From: a virus
Lineage: Duplodnaviria; Heunggongvirae; Uroviricota; Caudoviricetes
Reading direction: 5' to 3' (one strand)
Virus record (IMG/VR): IMGVR_UViG_2778261247_000018
DNA length: 4,319 bases
The notes under the pieces are model-generated. The model had not been told where the DNA came from. It saw only the letters and a list, made by a program, of their open reading frames with translations, and made no database searches. Below, piece after piece: positions 2,477 through 4,319 of this stretch. Position numbers and translations under genes: made by a program. Position 1 is the stretch's first letter, and each line of letters starts with the position of its first letter.

Positions 2477-2794
2477 ATGCGCCCCGTTTTATTGGGTAGG
2501 ATGAAAATGGATATAACACCTTTTCTTCATGCGCTTTGTGCTGTGGCTGCGCAGGTACTGATTGGCCTTTTTACCGGAAACTGGGCTTACGGTGCGATAG
2601 CCGGTTGTACGTTCTTCATTGCGCGTGAACACACCCAGGCAGAATATCGCTGGATTGAAATGTTCGGGCATGGCAAGCGAATGAATATGCCGTGGTGGGG
2701 CGGTTTTGATCCGCGCGCGTGGGATGTAGCAAGCCTGATGGATTTTGCTGTGCCGGTGGTGGCGTGTCTGCTGATCTGGATGTTGATCCGTTAA
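2477..2794 (+). CDS. Small two-helix membrane protein (about 96-105 aa) in moron position; function unknown
   Basis: ORF 2477-2794, stop TAA at 2792-2794. ATG at 2507 has the better RBS (AGGA at 2498-2501, 5-nt spacer), so the true start may be 2507. Two hydrophobic segments (ALCAVAAQVLIGLFTGNWAYGAIAGCTFFIA and FAVPVVACLLIWMLI) flank a Trp-rich loop. Hand-counted GC of 60-nt lines is about 48-58% here against 32-37% in much of the fibre genes. Confidence 0.6.
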   Translation: MRPVLLGRMKMDITPFLHALCAVAAQVLIGLFTGNWAYGAIAGCTFFIAREHTQAEYRWIEMFGHGKRMNMPWWGGFDPRAWDVASLMDFAVPVVACLLIWMLIR

Positions 2795-2795
2795 A

Positions 2796-2845
2796 TATAA
2801 AAAGTAAAAAGCCGCAGTAACTTGTCATGATAGGATACTGCGGCT
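2796..2845 (-). terminator. Probable rho-independent terminator for the minus-strand dinI-like / int transcripts
   Basis: 10-bp stem 2810-2819 (AGCCGCAGTA) pairs with 2836-2845 (TACTGCGGCT) around a 16-nt loop. On the minus strand the hairpin is followed by TTTTTACTTTTTATATTT (plus 2796-2809 region). On the plus strand it is not followed by a U-tract. Confidence 0.5.
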
Positions 2846-2911
2846 GGCTGGTTAACTTTCGATAGTGCGAGTATTGAATGATTTCCAGCCGTTACTGATT
2901 TTACGTGCTAA

Positions 2912-3160
2912 TTAGTGAACAAACCACTCGTCAGCAGACTCCCAGGTATCTTTCAGAGTTTCCTGAACAAAAGTTTTAGCTGAATCTTTATCGGCGGTGC
3001 GCGTAACAGAAAGGCCATCGTTGCTGGTGGCTTTTACGATCACCTCTACATCGTCATAACGTTTACTGATGCGTCGGGTTAATTCTTCCTTTAACGCATC
3101 CACAGCACCGTTTGGCATTTTAGTCATTTTTTCTTTGGCTATGCAGATCTCAATACGCAT
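2912..3160 (-). CDS. dinI: DinI-family protein (DNA-damage-inducible protein I homologue, 82 aa)
   Basis: MRIEICIAK...[14 protein letters not shown]...LSV...[13 protein letters not shown] aligns by eye along its whole length with E. coli DinI as I recall it (81 aa; MRIEV.IAK...GAIDALAGELSRRI...ETWESADDWFV). ATG is the reverse complement of 3158-3160, SD GAGGG sits 6 nt upstream on the minus strand, stop TAA is the reverse complement of 2912-2914. LexA boxes lie immediately upstream. Confidence 0.88.
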
Positions 3161-3175
3161 AAAAGTCCCTCTATA

Positions 3176-3191
3176 CTGTGTTTGTATACAG
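3176..3191. promoter_or_regulatory. LexA (SOS) box proximal to the dinI-like start: CTGTGTTTGTATACAG (minus-strand reading CTGTATACAAACACAG)
   Basis: Matches the gammaproteobacterial LexA consensus CTG-N10-CAG (CTGTATATATATACAG) at 12 of 16 positions on the minus-strand reading. Sits inside a 20-bp near-palindrome TACTGTGTTTGTATACAGTA (3174-3193), 16 nt upstream of the dinI-like ATG. Confidence 0.75.
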
Positions 3192-3203
3192 TATTATTTT
3201 TAA

Positions 3204-3219
3204 CTGTATGGATAAACAG
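3204..3219. promoter_or_regulatory. Second, distal LexA (SOS) box: CTGTATGGATAAACAG (minus-strand reading CTGTTTATCCATACAG)
   Basis: CTG-N10-CAG with 13 of 16 matches to CTGTATATATATACAG on the minus-strand reading. Its CTG is 28 bp from that of the proximal box, and it lies 2 bp past the integrase stop codon (3222-3224). Confidence 0.7.
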
Positions 3220-3221
3220 TG

Positions 3222-4319
3222 TCAAGAGGTCTTATTTCTGCTCCTTTGGAGCTCTTCAAAACGATTATGTAAAGATTTCGGATACAGTTCGGTATATACC
3301 TGCCATAGCACGTTTAATGAACGATGCCCTGTAACCTGAGCGACTTCCTCAATACTAAAACCAGCCTCAAATAAGCGACTTGCCCCTTCTCTACGCAAAT
3401 CATGGTATCGCAGATCTTTAATACCTAATTTGCTTCTTACCCTCTGAAATCCTGCAGTAACAGAAGTGCTGTTATATGGAAAAATGAATTCCGATTTTTT
3501 GGGCTGTCGTTGGACGATATCCCAGGCTTCCCCAAGCAAGGCTACTTTCATGTGGTTGCCTTCCTTTTTGCGTGGATCTTTCCTGTCTCTTACGAGTATA
3601 GATTTTTGTTCCTGGTCGAGATCTTCCCATCGTAACCGGCATACTTCTCCGATCCGCATACAGGACCACACAGAAAATTTGAGGATATCAACGAACGGAA
3701 TTTTTGAGCATTTATGAGTAGATCGTTGTTGAAGGCCTTCAATGAGCATGTCCAGTTCATCAGATGCTGGTCTACGATTACGACGGTTTGATTTACCAAT
3801 CAAACCAAGTTTAAGTAGATATGGGCGAGCGCTTTTCGCCGGGTTTGATGTGTAATTAATTCCGTATACAGGTTTGGCCGCATCCAGAACACTGCCAAGA
3901 TAACTAACATCGTGGCTGACTGTTGCTGGACCTGCACCAGCGTTGTTTCTTAGCCTGCAATGTTCAATTACGTCATTTTCTGTCAGTTCAGATAGTTTGA
4001 TCGCGGAGATGTCACTATCCATAAGCAGTTCCAGCACATATCTTTTAGTACGGCCTGCTTTACCTCCGGCATTTGGGTCATTTAAATATTTGTGTAGTAA
4101 GTCACGGACTGTAAGTCCGTCAACTGCATTTGATGATGGAATGCCATATAGATCTAATTCCATCACTTTCTGTGTTCCCCATGTTTTGGCATGAGCATGT
4201 TTAGGGAATGTTTTGCTTTCCCTGTAAGTGATAACACCTTTTTCTTTGATAATCACATTACAGCGATAGCGTGGTGTGCCATCGGATTTTAGTCGTTTCT
4301 CTATGTTATAGTACGCCAT
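3222..4319 (-). CDS. int: Tyrosine-type site-specific recombinase / phage integrase (365 aa as seen; start codon at the window edge, so the N-terminus could extend beyond it)
   Basis: Catalytic-domain motifs in the expected order in the C-terminal half: ...MRIGEVCRLRWEDLD... (box I Arg), ...YHDLRREGASRLFEAGFSIEEVAQVTGHRSLNVLWQVYTELYP (H-x-x-R, then GH, then a Tyr 10 residues later). The last block resembles the Rci / Xer / phage-integrase box II (GHRSxNxLxxY). Stop TGA is the reverse complement of 3222-3224. The ATG is the reverse complement of 4317-4319, the final three bases of the window. Confidence 0.85.
   Translation of the reverse strand: MAYYNIEKRLKSDGTPRYRCNVIIKEKGVITYRESKTFPKHAHAKTWGTQKVMELDLYGIPSSNAVDGLTVRDLLHKYLNDPNAGGKAGRTKRYVLELLMDSDISAIKLSELTENDVIEHCRLRNNAGAGPATVSHDVSYLGSVLDAAKPVYGINYTSNPAKSARPYLLKLGLIGKSNRRNRRPASDELDMLIEGLQQRSTHKCSKIPFVDILKFSVWSCMRIGEVCRLRWEDLDQEQKSILVRDRKDPRKKEGNHMKVALLGEAWDIVQRQPKKSEFIFPYNSTSVTAGFQRVRSKLGIKDLRYHDLRREGASRLFEAGFSIEEVAQVTGHRSLNVLWQVYTELYPKSLHNRFEELQRSRNKTS

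Follow-up and report, generated by a model that had tools for sequence, protein, structure and literature searches.

How is a small DinI-like gene lying beside a phage integrase gene controlled, and does its position make it part of the machinery that governs lysogeny and induction? The question is raised by a stretch of 4,319 nucleotides (nt) from a virus of the Caudoviricetes (IMG/VR record IMGVR_UViG_2778261247_000018), referred to here as the window, in which 61 base pairs (bp) separate the stop codon of the integrase gene (int) from the ATG of the DinI-like gene and hold two LexA boxes. An original prediction, made from the letters alone, read this arrangement as a DinI-like gene under double LexA control that belongs to a lysogeny/induction module. 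Our analysis confirmed the observation itself and partly supported its interpretation. We propose, with a probability of a little under 0.8, that the gene forms a self-contained, SOS-inducible DinI cassette, a moron-like unit at the accessory end of a lambda-like prophage integrated at dusA.

The limits of the intergenic gap (3161-3221, 61 bp) were borne out by the open reading frames (ORFs) that flank it, int at 4319..3222 and the DinI-like gene at 3160..2912. Both lie on the minus strand, which the original prediction left unmentioned. The pattern CTGT-N8-ACAG occurs without mismatch exactly twice in the window, at 3176-3191 and 3204-3219, the two places at which well-formed LexA boxes had been reported. 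The proximal box, TACTGTATACAAACACAGTA (3193..3174, minus strand, core 3176-3191), has a heterology index of 3.46, and the distal box, CACTGTTTATCCATACAGTT (3221..3202, minus strand, core 3204-3219), has an index of 5.17. The matrix used for this scoring was rebuilt from 34 known LexA sites of E. coli, and its consensus is the canonical TACTGTATATATATACAGTA; the presence of the dinI site among them was verified in the K-12 sequence. Under leave-one-out, the known sites gave indices of 1.3-12.8, and both window boxes are strong sites that fall within the better half of these known sites. Lewis et al. in 1994 are said to have placed functional LexA sites below a heterology index of about 12.6. 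Random windows of equal size (3000, first-order Markov) contained on average 0.001 sites with an index below 6, and pairs of sites below 9 that lie 10-40 bp apart were found in none (0/3000). The LexA-box pair is far beyond chance.

Read on the minus strand, the region runs C-TTGACA-CTGTTTATCCATACAGT-TAAAAAT-AA-TACTGTATACAAACACAGTA-TA-GAGGGA-CTTTT-ATG. A consensus scan returned a perfect -35 hexamer, TTGACA (3225..3220, minus strand), an 18-nt spacer and AAAAAT, and the GenBank record of phage mEp460 annotates the same promoter with a 17-nt spacer, which makes the predicted -10 element (3196..3202, minus strand) either TAAAAA with the shorter spacer or AAAAAT with the longer one. A Shine-Dalgarno sequence, GAGGGA (3166..3171, minus strand), was found by direct reading 5 nt upstream of the ATG. 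The distal box constitutes the entire predicted -35/-10 spacer. The proximal box starts 2-3 nt past the -10 element, ends 13 nt before the ATG and covers the predicted transcription start and the early 5' untranslated region (5'UTR), so that the overlap of boxes and promoter claimed earlier is found for both operators. Alignment of homologous promoters from five genera showed that the TTGA of the -35 hexamer is invariant (12/12); the CTG/CAG cores of the proximal box are likewise invariant in all 12 aligned promoters, and in every two-box relative an A/T-rich, TAAAAT-like hexamer follows the distal box immediately on its 3' side. Double LexA control of the promoter is very likely.

The stop codon of int (TGA, 3224..3222) forms part of the -35 hexamer TTGACA that belongs to the predicted dinI promoter, a further point on which the original prediction was silent, and no terminator was found between int and dinI. 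Transcripts from int would enter the two LexA-bound operators directly and, if unblocked, continue into dinI.

Cooperative LexA binding has been reported for lexA and colicin genes. In the window, the centres of the two boxes are 28 bp apart, or about 2.7 helical turns, and in two-box relatives the distance varies from 26 to 29 bp; the spacing is neither fixed nor helically phased in the manner of the cooperative tandem operators of the lexA/colicin type. Cooperative binding is thus not supported by the geometry of the boxes, and each box seems to be placed relative to a promoter element, not relative to the other box. The promoters of lexA, recN and colicin genes share with the cassette the presence of more than one LexA box, but their layout differs. 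The Salmonella lexA boxes lie 6 and 27 nt from the ATG and the recN boxes 8, 26 and 48 nt (PMC8072944), which gives spacings of 21 bp for lexA and of 18 and 22 bp for recN, against 28 bp in the window cassette, where one box occupies the -35/-10 spacer and the other the start site, unlike the lexA/recN spacing.

The product of the downstream gene (3160..2912, minus strand), a protein of 82 amino acids (aa), was identified by Pfam, phmmer, alignment and predicted fold. The Pfam search upheld the earlier assignment to the DinI family, with a match to PF06183 at E=1.2e-19 (70.8 bits against a cut-off of 24.2) that covers profile positions 1-63 of 63, and phmmer matched the PDB entries 1GHH and 7YWA at E=7.9e-13 across residues 1-81. 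The protein is 49% identical to E. coli K-12 DinI over its full length. W73, E74, A76, D77, W79 and F80 are invariant among six aligned homologues, and the C-terminal helix motif reads WESADEWF, compared with WESADDWF in E. coli DinI. The acidic C-terminal helix of DinI is the RecA contact (Voloshin 2001, as cited in PMC3121763). A single-sequence AlphaFold model of moderate confidence (mean predicted local distance difference test, pLDDT, 77) shows the elements E-H-H-E-E-H-H; its only Foldseek hits at E<=0.001 are 1GHH, which is E. coli DinI, and 7YWA, which is DinI bound on the RecA filament, with template modelling (TM) scores of 0.65-0.68. By profile, sequence and predicted fold, the 82-aa protein is a full-length, stand-alone DinI homologue.

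In this respect it differs from Tum of phage 186, which had been named as a precedent. Tum is a protein of 146 aa in which an antirepressor half is fused to a DinI-like half, and a split version exists in PSP3 and Fels-2. Like the window protein, Tum is a phage product with DinI similarity, and its gene is under LexA control (PMC3121763), but Tum is a fusion, whereas the window protein aligns to DinI from residue 1 (residues 1-81) and has no added domain.

The statement that host dinI is driven by a single box also held. In K-12, dinI (b1061) carries one box, ACCTGTATAAATAACCAGTA, with an index of 4.4, which overlaps the -10 element and stops 19 nt short of the ATG; within 150 nt, no other site scores better than 14.6. 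The window gene shares with chromosomal dinI the protein family, the size, the C-terminal WESAD(D/E)WF helix and a strong box just before the ATG. The chromosomal gene, however, has one operator and another promoter, whereas the window gene is prophage-borne and has a perfect TTGACA and two operators. In score, the window operators match or surpass the one box of host dinI.

The cassette is widespread. We found it in 103 phage records of INPHARED and in 1809 of 5426 complete E. coli genomes in RefSeq, with up to seven copies per genome and 4-5 copies in O157 strains. A scan of IMG/VR with the single protein returned only matches that are 98-100% identical, and both boxes are present at all 50 of these loci with enough upstream DNA (19 distinct sequences, indices <=9.5). 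Greater diversity came from GTDB, where the species representatives, scanned with an alignment of DinI sequences, yielded 80 loci. At least one LexA box was present at 76 of 79 DinI-family loci, with a strong box typically 13-23 nt before the ATG; nearly every sampled gene of the family has a box at the position of the proximal box. Chromosomal-type dinI genes have a single box (25/28 loci), whereas two strong boxes were found at 11 of 19 loci of the phage-type clade, which is marked by the N-terminus M-x-x-E-x-x-I-A-K-E-K.

The two-box layout is kept across copies from E. coli, Shigella, Erwinia and Mixta at 58-100% protein identity. In the Erwinia and Mixta copies (58-59% identity), the order -35, box, -10, box, Shine-Dalgarno recurs, and the boxes retain the CTG and CAG triplets while inner positions differ. 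Raoultella and Klebsiella relatives retain the -35 element and the proximal box, and their distal box has decayed: it is reduced to a CCAG half-site in the Raoultella copy and has left no remnant in the Klebsiella-phage-type copy. The Raoultella remnant points to a two-box state that was probably ancestral, and the overall pattern of boxes indicates that selection acts on both operators in most of the phage-type clade.

The boundaries of the cassette were located by comparison with related phages. In the cdtI, YYZ-2008, Shiga toxin (Stx), PhiR, P-EibC and JLK-2012 phages, similarity to the window breaks off at the -35 hexamer or no more than 3 nt from it. At the other end, a conserved 3' untranslated region (3'UTR) of about 65 nt (2846..2911, minus strand), recognised from alignment and folds, contains a hairpin formed by GGCTGG (2890..2885) and CCAGCC (2851..2846); region and hairpin are conserved in mEp460, cdtI, Stx2_EH2201 and an Stx2c phage and are absent from more distant copies. 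Next comes a terminator-like structure (2845..2798, minus strand) predicted by RNA folding, in which AGCCGCAGTA and TACTGCGGCT pair across a 16-nt loop and TTTTTACTTTTT follows; the consensus scanner missed this hairpin because its loop is longer than 8 nt. Relatives have a terminator hairpin at the same place, but its sequence differs, and homology with mEp460 ends at 2838. Because homology ends at the -35 hexamer and at the terminator, these points are taken as the cassette boundaries. Seen in this comparison, the cassette is a moron-like unit made up of promoter, gene, 3'UTR and predicted terminator, located at the att-proximal end of the accessory region.

The boundaries also bear on the supposed link with int. 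Matches to the 4319-bp window come from lambda-like phages and from prophages of E. coli, and a 336-bp segment around the two boxes matches, at 100% identity, a prophage of E. coli strain VTB97074v, in which int lies 88 bp from dusA. Integrases associated with dusA are a described family, which fits the int of this type of prophage (PMC4482086). Adjacency of the cassette to int is limited to this integrase type, whose attachment (att) site lies upstream of int by dusA. No constant linkage to int was seen across related phages, where its neighbour is the att repeat or some other gene. The cassette comes after cdtABC in phage cdtI; in YYZ-2008, Stx2_EH2201 and JLK-2012 it follows genes for DUF1076 proteins, nleC or espV, about 225 bp from the att repeat; further contexts occur in PhiR12_2, PhiR5_1, P-EibC and an Stx2c phage. 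Since the same cassette stands beside att or cargo genes in most other phages, it is not part of an int module, and the claim that its place next to int assigns it to a lysogeny/induction module did not survive the comparison. Functional coupling of dinI with int was rejected on the same ground.

The analysis itself shows the family of the gene, the quality and conservation of the sites, the geometry of the predicted promoter and the modularity of the cassette. We infer LexA binding, SOS induction, RecA binding, timing and any effect on prophage induction or mutagenesis as follows. In the undamaged cell, dimers of host LexA would occupy both strong operators, the distal one in the spacer and the proximal one over the start site. 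RNA polymerase would thereby be excluded twice, and read-through from int would meet two bound repressors. Upon DNA damage, RecA would be activated, LexA would cleave itself, both sites would clear and the 82-aa DinI homologue would be made. By homology with E. coli DinI, this protein may contact the RecA filament with its acidic C-terminal helix, modulating filament stability and co-protease activity. Because the operators match or surpass the host dinI box in score, very low basal expression and comparatively late induction are the likeliest outcome, and phage DinI would be added to the host copy only in strong or prolonged SOS.

Several points weigh against this proposal. The promoter assignment rests on consensus and conservation, with a start that is a predicted one, and the scanner reported three promoter-like sites there where chance predicts 2.1, which is not significant on its own. 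The scoring matrix is a reconstruction from 34 sites. About a third of phage-type copies have one box, which means that the family can do without the second operator. A literature search returned no experiment specific to the E. coli lambdoid dinI copies. Finally, non-polar deletion of the dinI homologues of the Salmonella prophages Gifsy-1 and Gifsy-3 did not significantly alter the level or the rate of induction reporters (PMC3121763), which puts the physiological pay-off in question.

LexA-controlled dinI genes on prophages are already known from Gifsy: the homologues of Gifsy-1, -2 and -3 carry a LexA box, and DNA damage by mitomycin C or nalidixic acid induces them (PMC3121763; PMC8072944). 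They resemble the window gene in being prophage-borne and in the quality of the box (3.9-5.3, compared with 3.5 and 5.2 here). They differ in having one box and in being the first gene of an operon with an antirepressor gene (gfoA/gftA) and irsA, 1.3 kb downstream of replication genes, whereas the window gene lies at the att/int end, adjoins tail-fibre genes, has two boxes and stands alone. No Gifsy-like antirepressor gene was found downstream of it; 67 nt after its stop codon the terminator hairpin begins. What is new is the conserved double operator and the stand-alone form. Our literature search, itself incomplete, turned up no account of the two-box promoter that the lambdoid dinI cassette of E. 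coli carries. The supplements of a ciprofloxacin transcriptome of enterohaemorrhagic E. coli contained nothing specific to prophage dinI copies, and in an evolved strain the CFT073-type dinI-like gene c0943 dropped along with sulA, umuD and recN, which is an indirect hint only.

Whom would such a cassette serve? One possibility, which we hold tentatively, is that it helps the lysogen through DNA damage, for example by stabilising RecA filaments or by restraining UmuD cleavage and SOS mutagenesis, and plays no role in the decisions of the phage. This would suit the company that the cassette keeps, next to cdtABC, nleC, espV and genes for DUF1076 proteins at the att-proximal accessory end, as well as its own promoter and terminator and its presence in 1809 of the 5426 complete genomes; in a comparative study, moreover, a DinI-like prophage gene is one of the elements associated with the later evolution of quinolone resistance. 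The host, however, already has a LexA-controlled dinI of its own. The cassette resembles the lambda morons bor and lom in being an autonomous unit of promoter, gene and terminator in an accessory region, with a mosaic distribution and independence of the lytic programme. Classical morons differ in being expressed from the repressed prophage, whereas the dinI cassette is predicted to be silent until SOS.

A second reading, which we consider rather unlikely, holds that DinI made during SOS serves the phage as a brake or timer by damping the co-protease activity of RecA toward slow substrates such as CI-type repressors and UmuD. Induction of the own or of co-resident prophages would then be delayed or limited, the more so the more copies a polylysogen carries. 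In the source-type prophage there is a CI-type repressor composed of a helix-turn-helix (HTH) domain and Peptidase_S24, which makes RecA-dependent cleavage relevant to it, and DinI at high level is reported, in the papers quoted, to inhibit the RecA co-protease and stall SOS. The cassette is common in Stx phages and reaches up to seven copies per genome, with 4-5 in O157 strains. The Gifsy-1/-3 deletions described above speak against a brake, although they are an inexact test, as Gifsy phages use antirepressors. In its most specific form, which we regard as a speculative and decidedly unlikely proposal, the cassette would be a copy-number-dependent SOS damper, silent under two LexA sites and firing only in deep SOS, whose DinI slows the cleavage of CI-type repressors, such that the 4-7 copies of polylysogens such as O157 strains set the threshold and the heterogeneity of prophage and Shiga-toxin induction.

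It is very unlikely that the boxes are used mainly by a LexA-like protein of the phage itself, instead of or besides host LexA, with re-occupation of the operators after LexA cleavage. The candidate is a 108-aa protein whose match to the LexA DNA-binding domain (Pfam LexA_DNA_bind, E=2.6e-19) is accompanied by no S24 domain and whose recognition-helix region reads SVNAAVEHL, compared with SPNAAEEHL in E. coli LexA. It co-occurs with the dinI cassette in mEp460, cdtI, 2H10, phiSTEC1575 and 15 Stx2c phages. Yet the 61 records with the LexA-domain protein include no Stx1a- or Stx2a-converting phage, although the cassette is carried by 48 records of such phages, and SfII, SfIV and SfV have the protein although no Shigella phage is among the dinI matches. 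Because the co-occurrence is partial in both directions, the LexA-domain protein was rejected as an obligatory partner of the cassette.

That the palindromes are fortuitous or have another role, such as recombinase or IHF sites of the int directly upstream of them, can be dismissed as extremely improbable, since only 0.001 strong sites per window are expected by chance, none of 3000 random windows held such a pair, the boxes travel with dinI and not with int in phages with another or no nearby integrase, conservation falls exactly on the LexA-contact triplets, and the att site of this int type lies on the other side of int, beside dusA.

With the self-contained SOS cassette as the preferred reading, what the locus means can be put briefly. 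It represents well-formed but ordinary SOS wiring on a mobile element, and its gene is of a very common, already annotated kind. The lambdoid dinI is found in roughly one in three complete E. coli genomes and in numerous phages that carry Stx, Cdt or effector genes, under a conserved two-operator promoter that is on paper stronger than the host dinI operator, and the cassette moves as an independent unit. If phage DinI feeds back on RecA, copy number could influence the induction of prophages by antibiotics, including that of Shiga-toxin phages.

The source-type prophage has two further features linked to LexA. The gene of the 108-aa protein lies at 40223-40549 (minus strand) of the VTB97074v prophage sequence (L175), between the genes for a Dam methylase and RusA. 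A LexA DNA-binding domain (PF01726, E=2.6e-19) makes up the whole protein, which lacks a protease domain and occurs in 61 phage records, including mEp460, cdtI, SfII, SfIV, SfV and Stx2c phages; it could act as a non-cleavable LexA mimic, and our literature search found no characterisation of it. The second feature is a third, very strong LexA box, TACTGTATGTAAAAACAGTA, with an index of 2.69 (L175, 44982-45001), which lies inside the coding sequence of the CI-type HTH-Peptidase_S24 repressor. In the 49.5 kb of this prophage, the only sites with an index below 10 are this box and the two dinI boxes. A promoter-like site was looked for near the box in the repressor gene, and none was found.

Some relatives showed arrangements of their own. 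In Mixta tenebrionis and Erwinia tracheiphila, the two-box dinI lies about 270 bp downstream of the tmRNA gene and is oriented away from it. This mirrors the arrangement in E. coli, where the cassette comes first after the att site and points inward. Other Erwinia and Mixta copies adjoin P22-antirepressor-like and tail-fibre-assembly genes, and these neighbours, together with the tmRNA gene, place the copies on integrated elements. In Pantoea stewartii, a small Peptidase_S24 gene of the UmuD-like type adjoins, in divergent orientation, a phage-type dinI whose two strong boxes have a spacing of 28 bp and lie 31 and 59 nt from the ATG. The DinI homologue of the Stx2c phages (Stx2c_PV98-693) has 86 aa owing to an in-frame duplication of 4 aa (VDAL-VDAL) in the first helix.

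The region downstream of dinI was also compared with Klebsiella, in which the small RNA DinR is derived from the 3' end of dinI (PMC10907235). Chromosomal dinI of Klebsiella carries the anti-ftsZ seed UCUCUCC at its stop codon. A DinR-like small RNA derived from the window gene's 3' end was rejected, as the seed stretch was not found there; the duplex of this region with the E. coli ftsZ leader scored -36.7, no better than the mean of -38.1 for shuffled sequences, and the longest complementary run was 8 nt. An Rfam scan of the whole window at E<=1 gave a single match, a chance microRNA. The sole minus-strand ORF beyond the terminator (2828..2616) is antisense to a plausible membrane-protein gene and compositionally implausible. 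A pseudogene fragment annotated in RefSeq as "capsid protein" opposite the dinI 3'UTR (L013, 5936-6016) looks like an annotation artefact.

The remaining genes of the window provide its context. Outside the cassette, the tyrosine integrase gene (4319..3222, minus strand; taken from the ORF list) encodes 365 aa and matches Pfam Phage_integrase at E=1.1e-20. Between the terminator and the tail-fibre genes, a gene on the plus strand (2477-2794) encodes a small predicted membrane protein of 95-105 aa (MDITPFLHALCAVAAQVLIG...), which has no Pfam match and is "hypothetical" in the annotations of related phages. Three tail-fibre genes precede it on the plus strand, at 7-1134, 1134-1415 and 1425-2465; the last encodes 346 aa with a C-terminal Peptidase_S74 intramolecular chaperone domain (Pfam) and contains, at 1589-1608, a weak LexA-like site, CGCTGAATATAGTTCCAGTT, whose index of 10.2 makes it probably a chance match. 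The tail-fibre region (1-2465) is mosaic, with sub-segments that match different phages at 74-95% identity.

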